A stretch of 32,000 nucleotides of DNA. Origin: Candidatus Saccharimonadota bacterium. Lineage in GTDB: Bacteria > Patescibacteriota > Microgenomatia > UBA1406 > GWC2-37-13. Below the pieces are notes generated by a model. That model was not told the origin of the DNA. It was given only the letters and a program-made list of their open reading frames with translations, and made no database searches. Position numbers and translations under genes: made by a program. Of the stretch, positions 1,856-20,194 are shown one piece after another. The stretch lies in contig MGBH01000001.1 in the NCBI GenBank assembly GCA_001790095.1, forward strand, positions 960,001-992,000, in the 5' to 3' direction. Each line of letters begins with the position of its first letter. Positions within the stretch are counted from its first letter, which is position 1.

Positions 1856-2307
1856 AAATAAATGAATAAATAATAAAGAGATTTATCATCAAACCTCAAA
1901 TCTATCCCTCATATATACATGAGATGATGATAGCTTTGAATCTTGAAGGAATCATTTTATGTCCAAATAGTATCGAAAAACCATGATAAAAACAAAAGAA
2001 TCAAGTATTCGCAAAAGGCGAAGAATTTTGTATAAGGATCCTCCCAGTATGGGAGAGAAAAAGATACTTTTTCCGTGGCAAGAACGGGTGAGCGCGATCT
2101 CGATCAAAAGATCGAGGATACATCGCCTTATACCCCGCTAAGCGGGGCTACCCTTAGGTTTGATAGCGTCAGAAAAAGTTTTCAATTTGCCGATCCCATC
2201 AGGAGGACCTGAACGAAAGTATACTAGATTCTCCTGTCGTTTGTCAACCTCTTTTATTGGCATATGAAGGACGCAAATAAGGATTCATGTGCTTGTTATA
2301 ATGAGAC

Positions 2308-3093
2308 ATGCTCCCTCTTATTCAGGTATTTAAAACTACCATCCGTGAATATGCGGCATATCGACTCAACTTTATACTTTGGCGGTTAAGGATGTTTTTA
2401 AATCTACTCTTTAATTTTTTTTTGTGGTCTGCGGTCTTTGATACGCGCTCTACGTTTGGACCTTTCCCAAAACACGCTATGATCTCCTATATTTTGTATG
2501 CCAATCTTATCTCCACCTTTGTGCTTGGATCAAGAACTGCAGAGATAGGCGCCTATATAAATGATGGAACAATTATCAATCTTATCCTCAAACCCGTCTC
2601 TTTTTTTAAATACTACTTTGCACGAGACATCGCAGACAAAGTGATGAATATCGTATTTGCTTTACTTGAGCTTGCTATAGTCATCTGGCTTTTTAACGCA
2701 ACGCTTGTTTTACCACAGAACATTATGTTATTTGCCCTTTTTTTCATAAACGGCATTCTTATTTCTTTTTTCATAAACCTTATGCTTTCCTTTATCGGAT
2801 TTTGGACTCCTGAGATATGGGCTCCTCGCTTCTTGTTTATCATGTTGGTATTTTTTATCTCTGGGTCCTACTTTCCCCTTAATCTCCTTCCTCCACCTGT
2901 CTATCATGCTCTTTTAGTTACCCCCTTCCCTTATCTTTTTTTCCTTCCCTCACTTACCCTTATCGGGCAAATAGATGGCGCTGTCATCTTGTTTCAGCTT
3001 TTTTTCTCGTATTTTTGGGTCGTCATACTGTATCATCTAGCCTTATATATGTGGAAAACCGGCAATAAAAATTTTTCATTTTGGGGAAGATAA
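2308..3093 (+). CDS. ABC-2 type transporter permease (uncharacterised ABC system permease component)
   Basis: 261 aa, very hydrophobic, with about 6 predicted TM helices. It is the first gene of a three-gene unit ending in an ABC ATPase. The family call rests on architecture and context, not on a motif. Confidence 0.65.
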   Translation: MLPLIQVFKTTIREYAAYRLNFILWRLRMFLNLLFNFFLWSAVFDTRSTFGPFPKHAMISYILYANLISTFVLGSRTAEIGAYINDGTIINLILKPVSFFKYYFARDIADKVMNIVFALLELAIVIWLFNATLVLPQNIMLFALFFINGILISFFINLMLSFIGFWTPEIWAPRFLFIMLVFFISGSYFPLNLLPPPVYHALLVTPFPYLFFLPSLTLIGQIDGAVILFQLFFSYFWVVILYHLALYMWKTGNKNFSFWGR

Positions 3094-3098
3094 TACTA

Positions 3099-3188
3099 AT
3101 GACCAATTATCAATTATCAATCAAATTCCAATGATTCAATAATTAATGGAAATTCATTGAAAATTGCAAAACTGAAAATTGAAAATTT
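3099..3188 (+). repeat. AT-rich palindromic element, family A (atgaccaatt...caattatcaatca...ttgaaaattgaaaatt); intergenic copy
   Basis: It shares its start (atgaccaatt) and internal blocks (atcaattatcaatcaaattcc[a/g]atgat) with the copy at 4959-5040, and its heptad tail (ttgaaaatt units) with the other copies. Confidence 0.85.
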
Positions 3189-3984
3189 ATTTATGAATGG
3201 TTTAAAAAAGAATATAAGGATCTTTTATCTTCTTTCCCTCAATGCCCTGAAAATTACCTTTCAGGCCCGAATCGGTGGGATATTTTTTCTTATTGGTAAA
3301 ATCATCCGTGTATTTTTTATTTTTTTATTCTTGAGTCTTATCTTCAGTCGTACCCGAATCATTAAGGGGTATACATTTGACCAAATTCTGCTTTTTTATC
3401 TTACCTTTAATATCATCGATACATTGAGTCAGATCCTGTACCGCGAAGTGTACCGATTTCGTCCACTGGTTGTGAGCGGCGGACTTGATATGGTTCTTCT
3501 TAAGCCGTTTCATCCTTTTGTCCGAGTGCTTTTGGGTGGTATTGATTACTTAGATATTGTTTTAATAGTTCCCTATATTTTATTGACTCTGGGAATTTAT
3601 ATAAAAATGGGTTCATTTCATTGGGGAAATATTATCTTGTATGTAGCTCTTCTTGGCAACTCGATGATCGTTGTTACTGCGTTTCACATCATCGTGCTTG
3701 CTTTTGGAATCATGACCACAGAGGTCGATCATACAATCATGATCTATCGAGATCTTATATCGATGGGAAGGTTTCCTTTGGAGATCTATAAAGAACCCAT
3801 AAGGGCAGTATTTACCTTTATTATTCCAATCGGAGTCATGATGAATGTGCCTGCACAAGCCCTCCTGGGGACTCTTTCCTGGAGGGGCGTCTTTTCTGCT
3901 TTTCTGATATCATTGGGGATGTTATATATCTCTCTTATATTTTGGAAATATGCACTTAAAAAATACCAAAGTTGGGGCGGTTAA
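3157..3984 (+). CDS. ABC-2 type transporter permease, second component
   Basis: 275 aa polytopic membrane protein between the first permease and the ATPase. The first 12 codons (MKIAKLKIENLF) are encoded by the AT-rich repeat at 3099-3188, so the true start is probably the ATG at 3193 (MNGLKKNIRIF...). Confidence 0.65.
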   Translation: MKIAKLKIENLFMNGLKKNIRIFYLLSLNALKITFQARIGGIFFLIGKIIRVFFIFLFLSLIFSRTRIIKGYTFDQILLFYLTFNIIDTLSQILYREVYRFRPLVVSGGLDMVLLKPFHPFVRVLLGGIDYLDIVLIVPYILLTLGIYIKMGSFHWGNIILYVALLGNSMIVVTAFHIIVLAFGIMTTEVDHTIMIYRDLISMGRFPLEIYKEPIRAVFTFIIPIGVMMNVPAQALLGTLSWRGVFSAFLISLGMLYISLIFWKYALKKYQSWGG

Positions 3985-3993
3985 ATAATAATT

Positions 3994-4962
3994 ATGATAT
4001 CGGTCAAAGATCTTACTAAAATTTACAAAGTCCATGAGCGCCAGGGAAATTTTATCAAAGATGTGTTATTTCGCAAATTCAAACGGGTTGAGGCGGTACG
4101 AGAGGTCTCTTTTTCCTTGGAACGCAATGAACTTGTCGGCTTCATAGGCCCCAATGGCGCCGGAAAAACCACAACGCTGAAGATACTAAGCGGTATACTT
4201 TACCCTACTTCTGGGCAGGTGTTTGTTGATGGATTTACTCCTTTTGAAAAAAAACCCGCATTTCTTAAACAGATTGCCTTTGTCATGGGACAGCGAAATC
4301 AGCTCATCTGGGATCTTCCGACAAGAGACAGTTTACAACTTCAGAAAACGATATATGAAGTCTCCGATCTTGAATATAAAAATAATGTACAGGAACTCAC
4401 CTCTCTTCTTGATTGTCAAAATCTGCTGGACAAACCGGTAAAAACGCTTTCTCTGGGTGAGAGAATGAAGATGGAGCTAGTAATGGGGCTCCTCTATAGG
4501 CCACGCATCGTGTTTTTCGATGAGCCAACCATTGGTCTTGATATATTTTCCCAAAGTGCAATAAGGGACTTTATCAAGGAGTATCAATCCGAAACTAAGT
4601 CAACCATCATATTAACAAGCCATTATCTTGAAGATGTTAAACGTCTTGCTAAAAGATTAATCATCATCAATAAAGGGTCAATAGTATATAATGGAAGTTT
4701 GAGTAATATTATTGAACAATATTCGCTTGAAAAGCACGTCAGAGTAACCCTTGACAAAACAGTAAATGAGACAGAAATCCGTAGAATCAATGTGCCATTT
4801 ATGTATACACACCCCAAAATCACCTTTAGCATAAAAAGAGGTGTTTTACCGGAGAAAATCAAGCTTATTACTCAAACTCTTCCTTTTTCAGATCTAACTG
4901 TTGAAGATGAAACGATTGAAGACATCATCAAAAGCTTCTTTGAAGAACAGAGAAACAAATGA
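3994..4962 (+). CDS. ABC transporter ATP-binding protein
   Basis: Walker A GPNGAGKTT, Q-loop MGQRNQ, ABC signature LSLGERMKM, Walker B IVFFDEPTIGLD, H-loop TSHY. The TGA stop lies inside the first bases of the repeat copy at 4959-5040. Confidence 0.92.
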   Translation: MISVKDLTKIYKVHERQGNFIKDVLFRKFKRVEAVREVSFSLERNELVGFIGPNGAGKTTTLKILSGILYPTSGQVFVDGFTPFEKKPAFLKQIAFVMGQRNQLIWDLPTRDSLQLQKTIYEVSDLEYKNNVQELTSLLDCQNLLDKPVKTLSLGERMKMELVMGLLYRPRIVFFDEPTIGLDIFSQSAIRDFIKEYQSETKSTIILTSHYLEDVKRLAKRLIIINKGSIVYNGSLSNIIEQYSLEKHVRVTLDKTVNETEIRRINVPFMYTHPKITFSIKRGVLPEKIKLITQTLPFSDLTVEDETIEDIIKSFFEEQRNK

Positions 4963-5040
4963 CCAATTTTCAATGATCAATTATCAATCAAATTCCGATG
5001 ATAATTGATTGAAAATCGGAAATTGATAATTAATAATTAA
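4959..5040 (+). repeat. Family A AT-rich palindromic element; intergenic copy supplying the TGA stop of the ABC ATPase
   Basis: atgaccaattttcaatgatcaattatcaatcaaattccgatgataattgattgaaaatcggaaattgataatt. The two arms are imperfect reverse complements. Confidence 0.85.
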
Positions 5041-5056
5041 AGCGTATAATTTTAGA

Positions 5057-5500
5057 ATGTCTAAAAAATTCACTCCATATCTATTTCTTGGCCTTCTAGC
5101 AGTCATTCTTTTTTTTATACTCGGAGTACGCTATGGCCAAAAAGTAGAAAAAACCAATAAAGTTATCACTGCTCTTATAAGTATTCCGCCTACCGCTACC
5201 GTTGCTCCCACCCAACCACCACTTACATTTTTAACTTATGTAAGCAAAGGGTGTGGGATCTCTTTTACTTATCCAAACTATTTTAAAGTTGAGAGGGAGT
5301 CGTCAAAAAGCGCAACATTACGTTATCGAAACCAATATATGAACTTTAGTTGTTTGAACTTTAAAAAAGAAGCAAGCCCTGAAGCTCATATGACTATTCT
5401 CACTAAATCAAACCCAAAAAATAGTGTAAAAACGGTATTTTATTTGGATAAATCACTTCTTCCTCTTCTTGAAGAAAGCATTAAATTTGTTACAAAATAG
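5057..5500 (+). CDS. Hypothetical membrane-anchored protein
   Basis: 147 aa with an N-terminal TM or signal anchor (YLFLGLLAVILFFILGV) and a Pro/Thr linker. No recognisable motif. Confidence 0.5.
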   Translation: MSKKFTPYLFLGLLAVILFFILGVRYGQKVEKTNKVITALISIPPTATVAPTQPPLTFLTYVSKGCGISFTYPNYFKVERESSKSATLRYRNQYMNFSCLNFKKEASPEAHMTILTKSNPKNSVKTVFYLDKSLLPLLEESIKFVTK

Positions 5501-5526: not shown

Positions 5527-6633
5527 ATGTCAAAACTCAAATTAGCCTATTTTGGCACGCCCATCTTTTCAGCCTACCTCCTTGAAAAAATCATCAAAGA
5601 CAAAGAGTTATCCGGTATCATACAGCTTGTCGTAACACAACCTGATAAGTTAGTTGGGAGAAAGCAAATTCTGACAAAGTCGCCCGTAAAAATAGTTGCA
5701 CAAACACATAAGATTGAAGTTTTGGATGATTCGGAAAGTGAAACGCTACTGCAAAAGATCAAGGGACTTGATCTTGCCATTGTGTATGCTTACGGTTTTA
5801 AAAAACTTCTTCCCCTCTCACTTCTCAAAGCCCCAAAAATCAAAATTAAAGATACGGGGACAGGTTTTATCAACATCCACCCTTCTCTTCTTCCTTTATA
5901 TCGCGGCTCCTCTCCTATCGCATACCCCATCTTGCTTGGAGAAAAAATAACTGGCGTATCGCTGTTTGTAATGGATGAACAGATGGATCATGGACCGCTT
6001 ATCGTACAAAAAAAAGTAGAAATAAGATTAAACGAAACAAGAAGCGATATGGAATCAAAATTGACTGATCTTGGGTTTGAAATACTGAAAAAACTTCTCA
6101 ATTCTTTAATCCGTGAATCCGTTAATTCATTAATTTTCACTCCTCAGAATCATTCCCTTGCCACCCGTGCCCCCTATATGATACGAGAAGATGGATATAT
6201 TGAGTTTACAACTCTCAAGAAAGCACTGAACAATGAGCCAATTGCTTTTAAAGAATTACCGCAGATTATCCAAAACTACCTTGATCATTATCCCCAGACA
6301 GATCGAGAACTAGTCTCAAAATACAAATTAGGAAATTATAGTCTGGATTCCCGCCTCCGCGGGAATGACATTTTTTCCAATTCTTCTCAGATTATCTATG
6401 ACTTTTGGAGAGGCATTTCGCCCTGGCCTGGTGTGTGGACCCTGTTAGAACCTCCGAGGTTTGACACGGTCCAGAAAGATAGAATCTCGGAGATTAAATG
6501 GAAAGGCCCAAAACGGCTCAAAATAACTGAAGTATCTTTTGTGGACAATATACTACAAATCAAAAAGGTCCAGCTTGAAGGAAAAAAAGAAGTGGACTTT
6601 ACAACCTTCCAAAAGGCGTATGGTTTGTTATAA
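5527..6633 (+). CDS. fmt: Methionyl-tRNA formyltransferase with an extended C-terminal domain
   Basis: N-terminal formyltransferase fold (LAYFGTP.FS, VVTQPDK, NIHPSLLPLYRGSSPI, VMDEQMDHGP). At 368 aa it is longer than typical Fmt. The extra segment contains an in-frame palindromic repeat at 6337-6370 encoding YSLDSRLRGNDI. Confidence 0.85.
   Translation: MSKLKLAYFGTPIFSAYLLEKIIKDKELSGIIQLVVTQPDKLVGRKQILTKSPVKIVAQTHKIEVLDDSESETLLQKIKGLDLAIVYAYGFKKLLPLSLLKAPKIKIKDTGTGFINIHPSLLPLYRGSSPIAYPILLGEKITGVSLFVMDEQMDHGPLIVQKKVEIRLNETRSDMESKLTDLGFEILKKLLNSLIRESVNSLIFTPQNHSLATRAPYMIREDGYIEFTTLKKALNNEPIAFKELPQIIQNYLDHYPQTDRELVSKYKLGNYSLDSRLRGNDIFSNSSQIIYDFWRGISPWPGVWTLLEPPRFDTVQKDRISEIKWKGPKRLKITEVSFVDNILQIKKVQLEGKKEVDFTTFQKAYGLL
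6337..6370 (-). repeat. GC-core palindromic element, family B (TGTCATYCCCGY-loop-RCGGGRATCCAGWCTATAAT), inside fmt in frame
   Basis: tatagtctggattcccgcctccgcgggaatgaca matches the copy at 13514-13545 at 29 of 32 aligned positions (13514-13545 spans 32 nt). The stem is attcccgc/gcgggaat. Confidence 0.9.
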
Positions 6634-13053: not shown

Positions 13054-13107
13054 GTATAAGAATACCAAAGTAAGTCATTTGAGCTCAGTAAAATATTTTA
13101 TTGTTTT

Positions 13108-13142
13108 CTGTCATCCCCGCGTTAGAGTGGATTAAGTCTATA
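13108..13142 (+). repeat. Family B palindromic element, degenerate right arm
   Basis: ctgtcatccccgcgttagagtggattaagtctata keeps the TGTCATCCCCG start and the AGTCTATA end. Confidence 0.65.
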
Positions 13143-13163
13143 TTTAATATCTTTAATAGAGAT

Positions 13164-13222
13164 AAGTCATCCCCGTGAGTCAAGGACTTCCCTTTGGGAA
13201 AGACGGGGATCCAGTCTATAAT
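13164..13222 (+). repeat. Family B palindromic element (long form), immediately upstream of the GIY-YIG gene
   Basis: aagtcatccccgtgag...cttccctttgggaaag...acggggatccagtctataat. The outer stem is atccccgt/acggggat, there is an inner hairpin cttccc/gggaag, and the element ends in TATAAT. Confidence 0.85.
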
Positions 13223-13231
13223 AACCTTAAT

Positions 13232-13516
13232 ATGTTTGAAAAAACGTTTTATGTTTACATCCTATCTTCTCAAAAAAATGGAACACTGTATGTTGGAGTA
13301 ACAAACAATCTTATGAAGCGCATTTGGGAACATAAAAATAAATTGGTTGATGGGTTTACTAAAAAATATGAAATTCACCATTTGGTTTACTATGAAATAC
13401 ATGATAATCCAGAATCGGCAATACAGCGAGAAAAACAAATAAAGAAATGGAATCGTCTATGGAAAATCAGATTGATAGAAGAAAAGAATCCTGAGTGGAA
13501 AGATTTGTATATTTAG
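13232..13516 (+). CDS. Stand-alone GIY-YIG nuclease superfamily protein (UPF0213/COG2827-like)
   Basis: FYVYILSSQKNGTLYVGVTNNLMKRIWEHK ... GFTKKYEIHHLVYYE ... AIQREKQIKKW matches the GIY-(10)-YVG, R..EH and E..IK blocks. The track start at 13175 reads through a repeat. The ATG at 13232 follows a TATAAT supplied by the repeat end. Confidence 0.85.
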   Translation: MFEKTFYVYILSSQKNGTLYVGVTNNLMKRIWEHKNKLVDGFTKKYEIHHLVYYEIHDNPESAIQREKQIKKWNRLWKIRLIEEKNPEWKDLYI

Positions 13517-13545
13517 TCTGGATTCCCGCCTTCGCGGGAATGACA
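13514..13545 (-). repeat. Family B palindromic element immediately downstream of the GIY-YIG gene, in inverted orientation; contains its TAG stop
   Basis: tagtctggattcccgccttcgcgggaatgaca. Confidence 0.9.
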
Positions 13546-13602
13546 ATGCAAATAAGTAACGTTGTAAGCTACGAGGTATATGATAACCATCATATATTTC
13601 TT

Positions 13603-13638
13603 TGTCATCCTCGGGCTTGGCCCGGGGATCCAGACTAT
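13603..13638 (+). repeat. Family B palindromic element
   Basis: tgtcatcctcgggcttggcccggggatccagactat. Confidence 0.8.
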
Positions 13639-13654
13639 GATTACAGATCAGATT

Positions 13655-13798
13655 CACCCTCATCTCCTAGACGATAAGATATGTATCATCTCAGAGATGA
13701 GGGTGTTGTGGTAGTTGGAATCAGATTTTGAGCCATGGTTGGGCTAGTCTCGCAAGATGCGAGACTCAATCCATGGCACTGTGCCACACACAACACCC
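13655..13798. other. Nested-stem structured element (candidate ncRNA or DNA cruciform) between the repeat cluster and the lipoprotein gene
   Basis: Four perfect stems can be read directly: caccctcatctc (13655-13666) with gagatgagggtg (13694-13705); gggtgttgtg (13701-13710) with cacaacaccc (13789-13798); gccatgg (13732-13738) with ccatggc (13771-13777); and agtctcgca (13746-13754) with tgcgagact (13758-13766). Confidence 0.5.
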
Positions 13799-13814
13799 TA
13801 CATCGGATGGAATT

Positions 13815-14348
13815 TTACTTGACGCGAGCCCACCAGTCATACAAATTGAGATAGGCCTTGCCCGACTCAAAACTGATAAAGCCCACACTCATCTCATCTT
13901 CATCGTTACAACCGCTGACGAGGTATTGATCACCCTGGTGATAAACTTCTCCCGTGAGGGTTATTTCCCATTCCCCAACATTATTCTGCGTTGGTCTTTC
14001 ATCAACGTAGATAATGATTGTAACGTCATACAACCACCCAGCATCAATACAGGCGTTTGTATACTCTACCTTATAGGGCGACCTCTCCATCGTTAACTCG
14101 CGCTTCTCAACAACAGTTGATAGCGCGTATTCGGGGGAAGAACAGATCATGGGAGGGTGACATTCAGGCGTGATTGACGGAGCGGGGGGTTGAGGGGTGG
14201 ACGGAATGGCTGTGGGTTGTGGCTGCGGAGTTGATTCATTGGTCGGGACCGACGGTTGCGGTTCCGGAGTTGATACGGGGCTACCAAAGCATGCGCTTAT
14301 CAGCGTAGCAATAAGTAGCAAGCAAGCAACATTATACAGTTTCTTCAT
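13815..14348 (-). CDS. Lipoprotein with a Pro-rich linker
   Basis: The signal peptide plus lipobox is MKKLYNVACLLLIATLISAC. This is followed by a PQPxP-rich linker and a Cys-containing globular domain. It is preceded by a canonical AAGGAG 6 nt before the ATG, and it is visibly GC-richer than its neighbours. Confidence 0.7.
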   Translation of the reverse strand: MKKLYNVACLLLIATLISACFGSPVSTPEPQPSVPTNESTPQPQPTAIPSTPQPPAPSITPECHPPMICSSPEYALSTVVEKRELTMERSPYKVEYTNACIDAGWLYDVTIIIYVDERPTQNNVGEWEITLTGEVYHQGDQYLVSGCNDEDEMSVGFISFESGKAYLNLYDWWARVK

Positions 14349-14779
14349 AATTAACTCCTTATACTTCGTTTGATGGGTTGATAGAAATACATGCAGTTTT
14401 TTATCTTATATCATCTTATACTTGTCTCCTTTCTTCATCAATTCAATGATGAACTCCTATTTAAACACATAGAATAATCATGCGCTTAAAACGGAGTTCA
14501 TCACTTTAGAATAATTCCAACCGATGTTTTTTCAAAGAGCTTTTTAACCTGTTTTTTGATTTGCTTGTATCAAAAATGGTTAAAAAACAAAAAAATCCAT
14601 ACAACTACTGCAGAATGCTTATCTCTGCTTTGTTTATATCTTATAGTATTATATCACACCCATAGTGTATATGTATCAAATATGTATATTTAACCATCTA
14701 ATGACTCATTTTGTGCATGCCGCTGTTATTAGTTTGAAAATGAAGTTAAAGAAGAATTCAGAAGTAAAAAAAACAAAAA

Positions 14780-15430
14780 TTATTTTGTAGCACCAGCCAT
14801 AGGAACAACTCGCAATCCAAAGTGACTGAGATCACCCATAGACTTTTTTAGCATTATAGCCATATCTGCTAAATCAGCATTAGCTGGATTAAGGCTGTCT
14901 ATTGAATCTTGTAGAGAAAGCCTAGCAACCTGAAGCACGTCCTGAGCCTGTTCGCTCGGTGGCAATTGAGTACCGTATTCGAGATCTTTAAACTCAGGAG
15001 CATCTACCCATTTTCCCTCTCCGCCATCTCCTTTTTCCCAACAAGTAAGTTTCATGCCAAAATCAGATACATTACGCCCAGGTGTTATTGATCCAGTTTC
15101 TTGCGTTTCCTTCAAAGAGTATGGTTTTTCATCAGGTCCCCAGAACCTAACCTCAACAGCTTCCTTAGTCAATGGTTTTCCAGATGCTTTGCTCTTACCC
15201 TCCACTGTTCTTGTATAAGTGACTCCATCCCAGCTTAGTTTTCCACTAGGTTCTTGTGCTCTCAGATCAATTTTGTCTTTCTCCGGACTCATGTCACAAA
15301 TTCGTGGTCGTCCAAATCGATCTTTTTCCTGTCCAGGTTTGATCAAAGGTTCTGTTTGAGGAACCGCTTTTGCATGTGTTGCTGAAAAACCTGTAACATC
15401 ACCACCTTCTCCCATATGAATCAAGCACAT
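14780..15430 (-). CDS. Hypothetical protein (orphan); last gene of the thyA-folA operon
   Basis: 216 aa and soluble, with no motif I recognise. It lies 20 nt downstream of the DUF1599-like gene on the same strand. An alternative start is M6. Confidence 0.5.
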   Translation of the reverse strand: MCLIHMGEGGDVTGFSATHAKAVPQTEPLIKPGQEKDRFGRPRICDMSPEKDKIDLRAQEPSGKLSWDGVTYTRTVEGKSKASGKPLTKEAVEVRFWGPDEKPYSLKETQETGSITPGRNVSDFGMKLTCWEKGDGGEGKWVDAPEFKDLEYGTQLPPSEQAQDVLQVARLSLQDSIDSLNPANADLADMAIMLKKSMGDLSHFGLRVVPMAGATK

Positions 15431-15450
15431 TAAATAGTATTAACCTAATA

Positions 15451-15765
15451 TTACTTTTTTTTCTTTTTCAACTCAAGTTTTTGAAACCATTTGCGGCGAA
15501 ACATCATAGCGATCACTGCATACACTCCAATATCCATCCAGCTGTCATCTATTGATTCGTGTTTTGGATTTTTGTTCACCAATAACAGATTTTTCAGTCT
15601 GTTTAATTTATCACTTATCCTGTATGCAATCCCCATCTCGCCCGTATCAAGGATATTACCCTTACCATAATCTCTGTGTTTTTTTATAAACAGTGTTTTT
15701 AACTCACCACATATCTCCTCAAACGCGCTGTCCAAATCTGTTGGTTGTTTCATTGGTTGCTTCAT
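15451..15765 (-). CDS. DUF1599-like (nucleotide-modification-associated domain 1 / all-alpha MazG-like) protein
   Basis: 104 aa and helical. It has the KHRDYGKGN ... RISDKLNRL blocks typical of small MazG/DUF1599-type proteins that accompany thyA in phage and bacterial nucleotide loci. The assignment is from memory of the family, not from a search. Confidence 0.55.
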   Translation of the reverse strand: MKQPMKQPTDLDSAFEEICGELKTLFIKKHRDYGKGNILDTGEMGIAYRISDKLNRLKNLLLVNKNPKHESIDDSWMDIGVYAVIAMMFRRKWFQKLELKKKKK

Positions 15766-15814
15766 ATAATTAATAATTAATAAATTAACGGGTTAAAGGA
15801 TTAACAGATTTCAC

Positions 15815-16330
15815 TTATTCTTTCTCCAAATCAAGAAACGTAAACCTTGCTCCCTTTTCTTCTCTCTCTTCTTTTGAGACAACTTTTGTAAATGCCGAAT
15901 AATCAGGAAAAAACTTATCACCATCAAATTCTCCCTTTACAATAGTTAAATAGAGTCTATCTACAAGGTGGATCGTCTGCTTAAATATCTGCTCTCCTCC
16001 TGATATAAATACTTCTTCTGTTTCTATCTCTTTAGCTTTCTGTAAAGCCCCATCGATTGATGAAACCACAAAGCACCGCTCCTGTTTTGGATCATAGGCA
16101 GTGTCGCGGGTTATGATGATTGTATTTCGCTCTGGCATGGGTTTTCCACTTCTTTGATAGTATCCAAGAAGCGAGTCAAAGGTGCCTCTCCCCATGATGA
16201 CGGTATGATGAAGCGTTTTTTCTTTAAAACGGACAAGGTCAGCGCGTATATGCCACGGTATGAGGTCGCCCTTGCCGATGACTCTGTTTTCAGACAGGGC
16301 ACAGATGATGCTAAGTTTCGGATTGTTCAT
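15815..16330 (-). CDS. folA: Dihydrofolate reductase
   Basis: LSIICALSENRVIGKGDLIPWHIRADLVRFKEKT, VIMGRGTFDSL, ISGGEQIFK. It sits immediately downstream of thyA. Confidence 0.9.
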   Translation of the reverse strand: MNNPKLSIICALSENRVIGKGDLIPWHIRADLVRFKEKTLHHTVIMGRGTFDSLLGYYQRSGKPMPERNTIIITRDTAYDPKQERCFVVSSIDGALQKAKEIETEEVFISGGEQIFKQTIHLVDRLYLTIVKGEFDGDKFFPDYSAFTKVVSKEEREEKGARFTFLDLEKE

Positions 16331-16379
16331 ACTAATTATGCTTAACCACTGTTTAACCTACGAGGTTAAAAGTGGGCTG

Positions 16380-17399
16380 TTAGATCGCCCTAAGTTTTTT
16401 TAATAGCTTTAAATTTTCATCATATAATCCACCCGTTACACTCAGCGATGCTTTGATTGGTAGATGTGGATTGTATCCTACCAAATCAACATATGATGGT
16501 TCAAAGTCGTCAACCGTTTTAAAAGAATGATTGAAATGTATCGTGGGAAATACTTTTGGTTTTCTTTTTAGCTGTTCTTGGACTTGGGTTACGTGCAGTT
16601 CATAGATGTGCACATCCCCAAACGTATGGATAAATTCTCCGGGTTCATATCCTGTTACTTTTGCCAGAATCAATGCAAGTAAAGCATAGCTTGCGATATT
16701 AAAAGGTACTCCTAAAAATATGTCAGCACTTCGCTGATAAAGCTGAAGGCTTAATTTACCATCAATGATATTGATCTGGTACATGTTGTGACATATGGGA
16801 AAGCGGGATGCATCTTTTTTGAGAGCCATCGTATAAAGATACTCGGGATTCCATGAGTTGACGATAAGATTATGCGCTGCTGGGTCTTCTTTAATCTCCT
16901 GAATTACCCATTTAAGCTGATCAATAGTCCTGGGTTTACCCTGTAAATCTTTAGATTTACATGGCCAACGTCTCCACATCTCACCATAAATTCTTGGAAG
17001 CTCTCCCCATTTCTTTGCAAACTTTTCATCAGCTGCAATATTGTTTATAAATTCCTCTTTTGATAATAATTCTTTATACTTTATACTTTCTACTTTCTTC
17101 TTACTCTTTTCCACGTAAATCCTATACGGATAATCGTCCCATATATGTACATTATTATCGACTAAATATTTAATATTTAACATACCCTTCATAAACCAAT
17201 TCAATTCATGCAGTACTCCTTTCCAATACACCTTTTTAGTGGTCAGAAGAGGAAAGCCCTGGGATAAATCAAATCGTATCTGGCGCCCAAACACGCTCTG
17301 AGACACATCTCCTGTACCCCTGTCAACTTTTTTGACTCCATGATCAAGTATGTCTTGAAGAAGATCAAGATATTGATATTCGGGGTGTCTGTACTTCAT
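16380..17399 (-). CDS. thyA: Thymidylate synthase (ThyA type, long form with a small-domain insert)
   Basis: DRGTG, FPLLTTKK, LHELNWF, nucleophile block FPICHNMYQ, YQRSADIFLGVPFNIASYALL (the Asn indicates dUMP specificity), GDVHIYELH. Confidence 0.95.
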   Translation of the reverse strand: MKYRHPEYQYLDLLQDILDHGVKKVDRGTGDVSQSVFGRQIRFDLSQGFPLLTTKKVYWKGVLHELNWFMKGMLNIKYLVDNNVHIWDDYPYRIYVEKSKKKVESIKYKELLSKEEFINNIAADEKFAKKWGELPRIYGEMWRRWPCKSKDLQGKPRTIDQLKWVIQEIKEDPAAHNLIVNSWNPEYLYTMALKKDASRFPICHNMYQINIIDGKLSLQLYQRSADIFLGVPFNIASYALLALILAKVTGYEPGEFIHTFGDVHIYELHVTQVQEQLKRKPKVFPTIHFNHSFKTVDDFEPSYVDLVGYNPHLPIKASLSVTGGLYDENLKLLKKLRAI

Positions 17400-17462
17400 A
17401 TCCCCATCAATATAGAATTATTTTTGAGTTTTATCAAGAGCAAAAAAGAAGATTAAGCCAAG

Positions 17463-17981
17463 TTATGATCGAGAGGTTTTAGAAGTTAATAAAGGGCAGG
17501 AATCAAGGATAGAAGGATTGGGTCTATTTATAAGTAGTTGCCGCATGAGGTCAAGGGATGAAGGTTGAGCGTTCAATCCATTTGTTTGTGCTCTTACTAA
17601 TTCTGTTGCGTCCCTGTAATCTTGTGGTTGTAATGGTTGTTTGCTGTTTAAACGAACCGCAGGATACCATCTATCTATCCTATTGCTATCAAGTTCATAG
17701 ATAGCAACACCATTTCGTTCAACCACTTGAGAAGTTAAAAGAAGTGCGTGAGTGTATGTGTCTGTGTCTTTTAGCACCATCCAGTTTGCTGCCTGCGGTG
17801 GAACTACATATTCCGGCATCATAAACCACCGCATTGGCATCCCTAATTTACCCTCTTTGATTAATCTATATTCTTCATCAGATACGATCCGTAAAAAATA
17901 CCCTGTAGAGTCTTTTTCTGTCACAAGTTCGCGTATCCTATCCCCAACATATTTATCTGAGAATTGTGGTGGTAATTCCAT
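17463..17981 (-). CDS. Hypothetical protein (orphan); first gene of the thyA-folA operon
   Basis: 172 aa and soluble, with no recognisable motif. It is on the same strand 63 nt upstream of thyA. Confidence 0.5.
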   Translation of the reverse strand: MELPPQFSDKYVGDRIRELVTEKDSTGYFLRIVSDEEYRLIKEGKLGMPMRWFMMPEYVVPPQAANWMVLKDTDTYTHALLLTSQVVERNGVAIYELDSNRIDRWYPAVRLNSKQPLQPQDYRDATELVRAQTNGLNAQPSSLDLMRQLLINRPNPSILDSCPLLTSKTSRS

Positions 17982-18113: not shown

Positions 18114-18794
18114 ATGCACAAAAAAAATTACTATATTATTGATTTTGACAGCACCTTTGTAAGATGTGAAGTATTGGAAGAGATAGCAAAGATATCTCTT
18201 CATGACAACCCGGATAAAAAAATTATTCTTAAAGAAATTGTTGCGATCTGTAATCTTGGTATGGAGGGCGCTCTCCCCTTTGAAGAAAGTCTTACTAGAA
18301 GATTAACTTTATTGCATGCCAATAAAGAGGATTTAAAAAAAGTCCGTGATGTATTGAAAAAAAACATTACTCCCTCCATATTGATACATAAAGAATTTTT
18401 TAAAAAGAACAAAGAACAAATTTATGTTATATCCGGCGCATTTAAAGAATGTATAACACCCATAACAAAACTATTTGAGATATCTGATAGTCATGTACTT
18501 GCAAATACATTTGTCTTTGATGACAGAGACAACATCATAGGAATAGACCTTCAGAATACACTTTCTCACAAATTTGGAAAAGTAAAAGCCGTACAAGCAT
18601 TGGATTTAAAAGGTAAACTTATCGTTGTTGGCGACGGCTATACTGATTATGAAATAAGAAAAGAAGAACTAGCTCATGTTTTTGTCGCATTTACTGAAAA
18701 CGTGAGACGGGAAAGCGTCATATCAAAAGCAGACTATGTGGCTGCAAATTTCGATGAATTCTTAAGACTTATCTCAACTGATCTTAACCGTTAA
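18114..18794 (+). CDS. HAD-superfamily hydrolase, subfamily IB (phosphoserine-phosphatase-like)
   Basis: Motif I IIDFDSTF (DxDxT), motif II VISGAF, a Lys (GKVKA), and motif IV VGDGYTDYE. Confidence 0.8.
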   Translation: MHKKNYYIIDFDSTFVRCEVLEEIAKISLHDNPDKKIILKEIVAICNLGMEGALPFEESLTRRLTLLHANKEDLKKVRDVLKKNITPSILIHKEFFKKNKEQIYVISGAFKECITPITKLFEISDSHVLANTFVFDDRDNIIGIDLQNTLSHKFGKVKAVQALDLKGKLIVVGDGYTDYEIRKEELAHVFVAFTENVRRESVISKADYVAANFDEFLRLISTDLNR

Positions 18795-19330
18795 ATCTGT
18801 GTTTCCCTTTTTGAAGTTGTCACACGCCCACCCTGCCATTGTCCTTTATATTGATTTCCTCCCCCATCTACCCACTCAAACTGCGCATGTACAAAACGTG
18901 CTCCCATCTCAATAACAACTTCTACCTGCCCTTCGTTTTTAAGACCAAAGGTAAGCTTACCACAGTATCCTGGCGCTCCGTTGCCTGTGCGCAAATTAAG
19001 ACCTGACCTAAAGGTAGTAGTACGAGGCTTGAAATTCACCGTAATATCAAGGGGAAGATTGACTTTTTCAATTGTCGTAACCAAGAAGTAATCACCTGGC
19101 TTAATCGTAATGGTGTTTTTCTTTCCTTCTTCATACTTTGTTACAAGTTCAATTGTTGGCGTTTCTCTCTCGGTTATTCCTAAAAATGCATGGCCTGATA
19201 TCTTATAAACTTCTCCCAGTCGCATATCAAACCCCGCCCCCTCAGGAGTCTTTAAATCCCGCTCTCCTAATCCTTCAACCAGTTTTTTTTCTTTAACCAA
19301 TTTTAATAGTAACTCCGGACCAAGGATCAT
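18791..19330 (-). CDS. dCTP deaminase/dUTPase-fold protein, divergent at the catalytic positions
   Basis: A gap-free by-eye alignment to E. coli Dcd covers DMRLGE (DVRLGN), PGDYFLVTTIEKVNLP, PRTTTFRSG (GRSSLARLG), GAPGYCGKLTFGLKNEG (IDPGWSGCIVLEFYNSG) and a C-terminal YKGQWQ. The Dcd catalytic Glu aligns with Gly, and the ID of IDPG aligns with GA. Confidence 0.7.
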   Translation of the reverse strand: MILGPELLLKLVKEKKLVEGLGERDLKTPEGAGFDMRLGEVYKISGHAFLGITERETPTIELVTKYEEGKKNTITIKPGDYFLVTTIEKVNLPLDITVNFKPRTTTFRSGLNLRTGNGAPGYCGKLTFGLKNEGQVEVVIEMGARFVHAQFEWVDGGGNQYKGQWQGGRVTTSKRETQI

Positions 19331-19354: not shown

Positions 19355-20194
19355 TTACACGACTCCCATCTCTTCCAGATCAACCCCGCCATCCTTATCG
19401 AAAGTAACTTCATAGATCGGTAAAGCCGCGCCTAAACATTTTAACGTTTCCATAAGATGGGCCTCTCCAGTCTCTGAAAGCACCTCATACAGATACTCAT
19501 CATCACACCCCTGAGGCAATGTGACTGCTTTGTTTTCATAGAGAGACTTTGCCAGCAATCTGTGGCGTTTGTTTACCAGATCTGTATGATACACAAATAC
19601 CTGTGTGTGTTTGCGATGACCCTCAACCAGTGCATCATACTGAGGATATATACTATATTCTCCTTTTACCAAAACAACCGCTCCCTCTATGTGATCTTCT
19701 CTAAGGATCTGTTCTTTTGCTCCTTGTATTTTCGCTTTGGTAAAGGTATTCGTAACAAATTGAAGATCTTCTGAAGTAACACCATAGTCTTTTGGGGTAA
19801 GTAGTATTTGGCTCATGTGCCCGCATCCTTCAAATACGTTCCCCTTTTGAGTATGGATATCTGTGTGAAATCCTAGGTTGTTTTCTCCTCCTATGATTTC
19901 AACAAGTGTGCGATAGGCTTTGTCTTTATCAAGCTCAAACCCGTACTCATTTGATGCTGCGATGATAAGAACAAGCTCTCCTGCGTCAGCGCCCGGTATA
20001 GCCAGGCCCGGCAGATTAGGAGTATCCCCATATCTCCCATCTATGCAGCGACTTCTATACTGCCCGTCTTCCTTTACTTCATACTTGTTTTCCCGTGCCA
20101 GATGAAAAATCTGCTCTTTGGAAAGTAAGATCTTTTGCATAGATTTCACATTATACCTAAATAAGTTGGCCGGTAAACTGCGTTTCGTTGGCAA
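19355..20194 (-). CDS. Hypothetical protein with CIDGR ... PGADAG ... HTD ... GCGH motifs, co-transcribed with the Dcd-fold gene
   Basis: 279 aa and soluble. It lies 24 nt upstream of the Dcd-like gene on the same strand. A likely alternative start is the ATG at 20140 (MQKILLSKEQ), which has a TATAAT 9 nt upstream. Confidence 0.6.
   Translation of the reverse strand: MPTKRSLPANLFRYNVKSMQKILLSKEQIFHLARENKYEVKEDGQYRSRCIDGRYGDTPNLPGLAIPGADAGELVLIIAASNEYGFELDKDKAYRTLVEIIGGENNLGFHTDIHTQKGNVFEGCGHMSQILLTPKDYGVTSEDLQFVTNTFTKAKIQGAKEQILREDHIEGAVVLVKGEYSIYPQYDALVEGHRKHTQVFVYHTDLVNKRHRLLAKSLYENKAVTLPQGCDDEYLYEVLSETGEAHLMETLKCLGAALPIYEVTFDKDGGVDLEEMGVV

Follow-up and report, generated by a model that had tools for sequence, protein, structure and literature searches.

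Does a thymidylate synthase gene in a row of five genes in a Candidate Phyla Radiation (CPR) genome belong to a plain thyA-folA pair, or to a larger and perhaps phage-derived system? The question is raised by a 32,000-nt stretch of contig MGBH01000001.1 (positions 960,001 to 992,000, assembly GCA_001790095.1), referred to here in its full length as the window. In it, five same-strand genes are found in the order o172, thyA, folA, a DUF1599-family gene and o216, where o172 and o216 encode orphan proteins whose exact database matches are named Candidatus Roizmanbacteria bacterium RIFOXYB2_FULL_38_10, a CPR/Patescibacteria metagenome-assembled genome (MAG). An earlier note made from the sequence had described these five genes with gaps of 20–63 nt and suggested an extended deoxypyrimidine-pool or base-modification module, possibly of phage origin. 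Our open reading frame (ORF) calls confirm the order, with gaps of 63, 49, 49 and 20 nt, although five co-directional genes with short gaps are unremarkable for a bacterial genome. We consider it likely that the locus is a chromosomal cluster of Candidatus Roizmanbacteria for the synthesis of thymidylate (dTMP), with a DUF1599 partner and two incidental orphans, and that it is neither phage-derived nor base-modifying.

The core of the cluster was assigned by profile searches and alignment. ThyA matched PF00303 at 7e-92 (307.7 bits, cut-off 24.3) and scored above the NCBIfam equivalog cut-offs of NF002496 (353 bits versus 325) and TIGR03284 (347.7 versus 108). The protein aligned end to end with the E. 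faecalis (3uwl) and L. casei (1lca) synthases, including the ~50-aa insert, and kept the Cys nucleophile (PICH versus PPCH), RSAD and PFNIASYALL. Within the alignment to 3uwl, the segments PICHNMYQ, YQRSADIFLGVPFNIASYALL and GDVHIY place the Cys, the RSxD arginine and the Asn that specifies deoxyuridylate (dUMP) at their expected positions, so that the nucleophile and the Asn of PFNIASY pointed out previously were both retained. From these residues and scores, ThyA is predicted to be an orthodox dUMP methylase of the L. casei/Enterococcus type. The adjacent dihydrofolate reductase (DHFR) matched PF00186 at 2e-43 (148.2 bits, cut-off 25) over profile positions 2–158 of 159 and also matched phrog_316. 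The Pfam and equivalog scores agree with the view that DHFR next to ThyA makes the core one of ordinary dTMP synthesis. Separately, ThyA carries a 7-residue insertion (…LKKDASRF…) directly before the catalytic Cys when compared with the E. faecalis synthase (window 16780–16810, residues ~193–200), and its homologs in two related loci, L007 and L024, likewise have extra residues just before this Cys.

The 104-aa product of the next gene was assigned to PF07659 (DUF1599), which Pfam names 'Nucleotide modification associated domain 1' (NMAD1). On its own the protein reached 23.5 bits against a gathering score of 25. Family membership, as the earlier note had proposed, was supported by a match to phrog_1485 (2.6e-17) and by its aligned relatives, 26 of 26 of which match PF07659 (best E = 4e-7). 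Additionally, homologs at 60–82% identity carry PF07659 in precomputed annotation, and Patescibacteria (CPR) contain >326 homologs, most annotated with this family. The true start is likely the second Met at 15753, yielding a protein of 100 aa, because the N-terminus of the family alignment indicates it. The alignment shows a small protein with numerous invariant residues, many of them charged: K29, D32, Y33, G34, K35, N37, D40, E43, R49, S51, D52, K53, N55, R56, E70, W76, D78 and Y82. An AlphaFold2 model from the 26-sequence alignment had three or four helices at a predicted local distance difference test (pLDDT) score of 69, too weak for fold assignment. Foldseek searches of PDB and BFVD returned no significant structural neighbor for it (none with E < 0.9), and a profile search of PDB found no sequence relative; a MazG-like assignment, which neither search supported, was dropped. 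The literature on DUF1599/NMAD1 is sparse, consisting mostly of domain listings, and gives no function.

One genome per GTDB species was scanned with the DUF1599 alignment, which yielded 80 loci, all from CPR. These loci were searched by tblastn with the window proteins and their neighboring ORFs were clustered; 65 loci, each with at least 2.5 kb of upstream sequence, were informative for counts of upstream genes. In 22 of the 65, ThyA and DHFR precede DUF1599 and share its strand. The 22 are spread over several clades of a low-resolution DUF1599 tree, the identity of their DHFR proteins drops to about 40%, and the downstream neighbor varies by clade (o639/QueA or ComM). Most cluster-bearing relatives have a 4-nt overlap of ThyA with DHFR. 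In the 15 cases where DHFR and DUF1599 are directly adjacent, the stop of the first and the start of the second share 4 nt in 8 and lie within 10 nt in 3 more. Such overlaps suggest translational coupling, both of ThyA with DHFR and of DHFR with DUF1599. The conserved unit is (o279)-DCD-like dUTPase … ThyA-DHFR-DUF1599, found in a Roizmanbacteria subclade. The order of all five window genes is not conserved across these diverged genomes, with o172 present in 3 other loci and o216 in 1.

Upstream of ThyA, a DCD-like gene occurs in about 18 loci and is preceded by an o279-like gene in about 18–20. The window's DCD-family protein matched PF22769 (8e-21), which makes it a member of the DCD/dUTPase superfamily, and it scored below the dCTP deaminase equivalog TIGR02274 (67.7 bits, cut-off 92.8). 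Its best PDB matches are 155-aa entries named dCTP deaminase. A Gly (LTFGLKN) takes the place of the LEF/LEL Glu of the E. coli and B. halodurans deaminases, presumably the catalytic residue of dCTP deaminases, and a classical trimeric dUTPase (PF00692) replaces the DCD-like gene at the same position in L040 (4158–4589). Because of the sub-cut-off score, the Gly for Glu and the substitute in L040, we read the DCD-family protein as probably a dUTPase supplying dUMP. The o279 protein is conserved in about 20 Roizmanbacteria loci with the invariant motifs CxDGR...HTDxH...GC (C50-x-D-G-R54, H110-T-D-x-H114 and G-C124); short forms of 176–192 aa in other genomes lack the N-terminal half with these motifs. 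Three of 11 members gave sub-threshold matches to Pfam CDCA, the cadmium/zeta carbonic anhydrase repeat, the best at E = 1e-3 (19 bits, gathering score 29). A tblastn search of 50,697 phage records found no o279 homolog. The o279 protein may be a new Cys/His metalloenzyme tied to dUMP supply. The variable slots of the cluster hold further nucleotide hydrolases in relatives. Between the DCD-like gene and ThyA, six loci (e.g. L016, 3744–4343) carry an HD_3/YfbR-like 5'-deoxynucleotidase; L031 has a NUDIX hydrolase between ThyA and DHFR (4995–5423), and the classical dUTPase of L040 belongs here as well. The locus can be called a deoxyuridylate-to-thymidylate neighborhood that includes a conserved DUF1599 cistron. 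A weak nucleoside 2-deoxyribosyltransferase-like ORF also lies between ThyA and DHFR in L015 and L020 (L020, 3084–3446).

Taken as a pathway, the DCD-family enzyme, lacking the deaminase Glu, would probably act as a dUTPase and feed dUMP to ThyA. On the basis of its family membership and active-site residues, ThyA would convert dUMP to dTMP with methylene-tetrahydrofolate, and DHFR, by family membership, would regenerate tetrahydrofolate. The small, highly conserved, helical DUF1599 protein would be co-expressed with DHFR, to which it appears translationally coupled in many relatives. A dUTPase-ThyX-DUF1599 block is also known from Asgard wyrdviruses, where it was read by the authors as dTMP synthesis from dUTP (bioRxiv 10.1101/2021.07.29.453957). 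Because of the coupling to folA and this independent, ThyX-linked occurrence, we infer that DUF1599 assists the thymidylate/folate cycle or the control of deoxynucleoside triphosphate (dNTP) pools as an accessory factor, most likely by binding or hydrolysing a nucleotide or folate. A more ambitious proposal would make DUF1599 a genuine third component of the ThyA/DHFR cycle in CPR and some viruses, o279 a carbonic-anhydrase-like (zeta/beta) Cys-His-Cys metalloenzyme feeding deoxyuridine nucleotides, and o172 a nucleotide-acting protein; in this combined form we regard it as doubtful.

The two orphans have a much narrower distribution. Neither o172 nor o216 matched Pfam, PHROGs, NCBIfam or PADLOC, in line with their description as proteins without recognizable motifs, and a profile search of PDB returned nothing for either. 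Likewise, neither has relatives in IMG/VR, JGI metagenome contigs or the 50,697 phage records (tblastn). Among 5.8e9 proteins, o172 is found 3 times in total, i.e. with two homologs at 53–54% identity, and a profile search of 1.84 billion representatives gave five clusters, some of them fragments. Within the cluster-bearing loci, o172 is limited to the window and L001–L003 (3 of about 29), and in L001 and L002 an opposite-strand gene of 195–202 aa separates it from thyA. Between the HAD gene and thyA, o172 is missing from close relatives, L007 and L012 among them. The most distant full-length homolog (P0126, L084, 37% identity) has a TPR membrane protein on one side and a small membrane protein on the other, and is not next to thyA. 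The AlphaFold2 model of o172, built from 3 sequences, is poor (pLDDT 57), and its Foldseek matches to ADP-ribosyltransferase folds (Tpt1/KptA, DarT) are non-significant (none with E < 0.9; probability ≤0.23, TM-score ≤0.35) and serve as a lead at most.

For o216, the only match among the 5.8e9 proteins is o216 itself. tblastn found one homolog (27% identity, E = 7e-14) at the same position after DUF1599 in L007, which shows o216 to be a genuine gene, though one that evolves fast. In L001, L005, L006 and L012 an o639 homolog comes straight after DUF1599, and o216 is absent there and in other relatives. Because of this direct succession, window ~13069–15430 reads as a ~2.3-kb strain-specific insertion of which o216 is the first gene. 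Co-occurrence of the orphans with thyA, which had been proposed as a check, holds for o172 in L001–L003 and for o216 in L007, but not for the o172 homolog P0126, and most relatives have neither orphan. The orphans had also been described as slightly richer in GC than their neighbors. At 0.43 for o172 and 0.40 for o216, the difference is marginal and within the range of the surrounding genes (ThyA 0.37, DHFR 0.41, DCD-like 0.42, o279 0.43), and GC at third codon positions (GC3) is low in both (0.28 and 0.31). Since their GC3 is low, the orphans carry no compositional sign of foreign origin, and GC was rejected as a sign of transfer. Judged by sequence and distribution, o172 and o216 are fast-evolving, lineage-restricted genes in variable slots that border the conserved unit, and most likely incidental to it. 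Most likely neither has a part in dTMP synthesis, and by their position both may be co-transcribed with the cluster here.

The spacers between the genes were also analyzed. The thyA-folA spacer contains a hairpin whose 13-bp stem has a single bulge and is closed by a loop of 3 nt; it lacks a U-tract. Its folding energy is -13.8 kcal/mol (z = -3.8), a stability that none of 200 shuffles reached. Spacers with a hairpin also occur in L036 and L051, while most relatives have the 4-nt thyA/folA overlap instead. No hairpin of note folds in the folA-DUF1599 spacer (-1.9 kcal/mol, z = -0.1), and the TTAACCT...AGGTTAA motif has no second copy within the window. Of the two related ttaac hairpins reported before, then, the one between thyA and folA stands and the other does not. 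With a single occurrence in the window, the hairpin was rejected as a repeated element. Within the o172-thyA spacer, TTGATA-17-TATATT has 10 of 12 consensus matches, though such sites are no commoner than in shuffled sequence; it may be thyA's own promoter.

A relative (L001) has a 649-kb contig that is collinear with window 7408–28099. The shared order is SSB, ribosomal proteins S6/S18, PDZ proteases, TatD, a glycosyltransferase, the o279 homolog, the DCD-like gene and HAD (opposite strand), followed by the o172 homolog, ThyA, DHFR, DUF1599, the o639 homolog, QueA and TGT. A Pfam scan of the flanking ORFs of the window identified Fmt, TGT, QueA, GT1 and TatD. No phage hallmark gene was detected among the window genes scanned with Pfam, PHROGs and PADLOC, and Rfam and tRNA scans of the window gave no match. 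The locus is core chromosome and no prophage, since its surroundings are housekeeping genes in conserved order (TGT, QueA, TatD, SSB).

Outside the ThyA-bearing clade, the neighbors of DUF1599 genes in CPR are PIF1-like helicases, PD-(D/E)XK nucleases, ComM and a variety of unrelated genes. In Bacteroidota, DUF1599 genes may lie beside folP. The 72 IMG/VR loci place DUF1599 in replication modules with DnaB, exonuclease and clamp loader genes; one of the 72 has a ThyA-like ORF within 5 kb and none has a ThyX motif nearby. For the suggestion that DUF1599 proteins are partners of thymidylate-synthase-like genes in phages and bacteria, the association was seen in 22 of 65 CPR loci, 1 of 72 viral loci and one literature report.

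Could the five genes work together as a single extended deoxypyrimidine-pool module, with the orphans as novel nucleotide-acting enzymes or regulators? The common strand and the 20–63-nt gaps would fit this, as would the HD 5'-deoxynucleotidase or dUTPase genes in the o172 slot of relatives, the NUDIX gene of L031, and the weak, non-significant resemblance of o172 to nucleic-acid-modifying ADP-ribosyltransferases. However, the three other loci with o172 are all close syntenic relatives, and one of them, L001, has an opposite-strand gene before thyA. The most distant o172 homolog is away from thyA, o216 has a single homolog and is missing from most relatives, neither orphan has a family, PDB or defence-library match, and a promoter-like site separates o172 from thyA. 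We judge such a five-gene module unlikely. As a label, an extended deoxypyrimidine-pool module is fair for the conserved neighborhood, with its DCD-like gene, DUF1599 and the slot hydrolases of relatives, but not for the two orphans, which are not conserved members. A phage-derived hypermodification module, in which a thymidylate-synthase-like enzyme, DUF1599/NMAD1 and accessory proteins would produce a modified pyrimidine, is suggested by the Pfam name of PF07659 and by the many DUF1599 relatives in viral contigs, which match phrog_1485. It appears highly improbable: ThyA passes the equivalog thresholds and keeps the Asn of PFNIASY, DHFR is adjacent as expected of a normal methylation cycle, and the genes scanned include no kinase, DNA glycosyltransferase, pyrophosphorylase (aGPT-Pplase), phage hallmark or defence hallmark. 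A ThyA-like gene adjoins viral DUF1599 in only the one locus of 72. Base modification as proposed in the earlier note thus finds an orthodox ThyA and none of these enzymes, and the proposed phage origin is contradicted by the housekeeping flanks and by the lack of homologs of the orphans and o279 in the phage records, and of the orphans in IMG/VR.

A different objection is that the adjacency of DUF1599 to thyA-folA is inherited gene order without functional meaning, DUF1599 being a general replication/repair accessory. Two thirds of the CPR and nearly all of the viral DUF1599 genes lie beside replication/repair genes (PIF1, PD-(D/E)XK, DnaB, clamp loader) or unrelated ones, and 7 genomes tolerate an opposite-strand gene between DHFR and DUF1599. 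Yet the 4-nt overlap with DHFR recurs in 8 of 15 adjacent pairs, the adjacency outlasts both the divergence of DHFR to about 40% identity and changes of the downstream neighbor among o639, queA and ComM, and the dUTPase-ThyX-DUF1599 block occurs independently in archaeal viruses. On this evidence we find inherited order without function rather improbable as the whole explanation. The preferred reading, a dTMP-synthesis cluster with a DUF1599 partner, nevertheless has several observations weighing against it. DUF1599 stands away from thymidylate synthase in 43 of 65 CPR and 71 of 72 viral loci, where its neighbors are PIF1 helicase, PD-(D/E)XK nuclease, DnaB and similar genes, so that it may serve DNA metabolism in a broader sense and not dTMP synthesis in particular. 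The opposite-strand gene between DHFR and DUF1599 in 7 relatives counts in the same direction, and the DUF1599-thyA-folA adjacency within Roizmanbacteria could largely be inherited synteny. A nucleotide-related role for o172 is conceivable because its slot holds nucleotide hydrolases in other genomes. Additionally, neither the DUF1599 nor the o172 model is strong enough to assign a fold, and the operon boundaries are ones that we infer.

Table 1. Features of the thymidylate cluster and its surroundings, in window coordinates.
Feature	Position	Strand	Evidence or remark
o172, orphan protein, 172 aa	17463..17981	-	upstream of thyA
thyA, thymidylate synthase, 339 aa	16380..17399	-	PF00303, NF002496, TIGR03284
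folA, dihydrofolate reductase (DHFR), 171 aa	15815..16330	-	PF00186; phrog_316
DUF1599/NMAD1 family protein, 104 aa	15451..15765	-	PF07659; phrog_1485
o216, orphan protein, 216 aa	14780..15430	-	NCBI start 15415, giving 211 aa
DCD-family protein, probable dUTPase	18791..19330	-	PF22769
o279, conserved protein directly upstream of the DCD-like gene	19355..20194	-	
HAD-IB (SerB-like) phosphatase	18114..18794	+	TIGR01488, 54 bits (cut-off 45)
Promoter-like site TTGATA-17-TATATT	17409..17437	-	o172-thyA spacer; consensus scan
Stem-loop, thyA-folA spacer	16346..16375	-	folding energy versus shuffles
Rest of ~2.3-kb segment without counterpart in syntenic relatives	13069..14779		GIY-YIG gene, o177, AT-rich spacer
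GIY-YIG gene	13175-13516	+	Pfam 1.3e-16
o177, lipoprotein-like, Pro-rich	13815..14348	-	
Palindromic element copies	6340-6369, 13167-13217, 13515-13544, 13606-13636		

Besides o216, the strain-specific segment contains a 430-nt AT-rich spacer, o177 and the GIY-YIG gene, which is flanked by three copies of a palindromic repeat (Table 1). The GC of o177 (0.49) and its GC3 (0.51) are unusually high for a 39% GC genome. The spacer (14349–14779) is 28% GC and includes an inverted repeat with 24-nt arms at 14447–14503. The palindromic element, GTCATYCCYG-loop-CGGGRATCCAGWCT, is ~30 nt long and present in 4 copies in the window, versus 0.01 expected; no copy was found in 164 retrieved loci. Three copies surround the GIY-YIG gene. 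The fourth falls within the ORF of the formyltransferase Fmt; it is in frame there and encodes ...SLDSRLRGND... in the linker that joins the N and C domains. The element resembles Rickettsia palindromic elements or miniature inverted-repeat transposable elements (MITEs).

The HAD-IB gene lies on the opposite strand, between the o279-DCD pair and o172-thyA. In L012 its homolog (2135–4030, -) is fused to SerA-like 2-Hacid_dh and ACT domains. Given the SerB-like HAD-IB gene and this SerA-like fusion, serine biosynthesis adjoins the thymidylate cluster. Methylene-tetrahydrofolate usually receives its one-carbon unit from serine, so the arrangement may, or may not, carry meaning. Many of the Third Party Annotation (TPA) MAGs among the loci are titled 'uncultured Gammaproteobacteria' or 'Pseudomonadales' (L006, L007, L019, L020, L022 and others). 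These taxonomy labels look wrong, as the loci are collinear with, and 55–82% identical to, Roizmanbacteria/Microgenomates genes.

Canonical thyA-folA pairs (thyB-dfrA type) are found in Bacillus, Enterococcus and Lactobacillus. The cluster described here resembles them in having an L. casei/Enterococcus-type synthase followed by DHFR on the same strand, with a 4-nt overlap in the window's relatives, and in its predicted chemistry, dUMP to dTMP and then dihydrofolate to tetrahydrofolate. In contrast to these pairs, it has a third conserved cistron, DUF1599, coupled to folA, as well as an upstream DCD-family dUTPase-like gene and o279; instead of the overlap, the window genome itself has a spacer of 49 nt with a hairpin, plus two orphans at the edges. 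Phage thymidine and cytosine hypermodification clusters, reportedly described by Iyer et al. in 2013, are said to combine thymidylate-synthase-like hydroxymethylases with kinases, aGPT-Pplases and NMAD domains. The likeness lies in a thymidylate synthase-superfamily gene near an NMAD1/DUF1599 gene, whereas here the synthase is a predicted orthodox methylase, the genes scanned include no downstream modification enzymes and the context is not that of a phage. The wyrdvirus block (bioRxiv 10.1101/2021.07.29.453957) shares with our cluster the combination of a dUTPase-type enzyme, a thymidylate synthase and DUF1599/NMAD1. It differs in its flavin-dependent ThyX, where our cluster has a folate-oxidising ThyA with the required DHFR, and our cluster has a DCD-family dUTPase and is located on the chromosome of a cellular CPR host rather than in a virus. 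The association of synthase, dUTPase and DUF1599 was thus already known from archaeal viruses, while the ThyA-DHFR-DUF1599 version in CPR, coupled to folA, is new.

The useful outcome of this analysis is the coupling of DUF1599 to folA downstream of thyA in many Roizmanbacteria, rather than the orphans. Since the nucleotide metabolism of CPR bacteria is minimal, their route to dTMP is relevant to their symbiotic lifestyle. For DUF1599 (NMAD1), a widespread phage and bacterial domain, the coupling provides a concrete and testable context, that of ThyA/DHFR and dUTPase.

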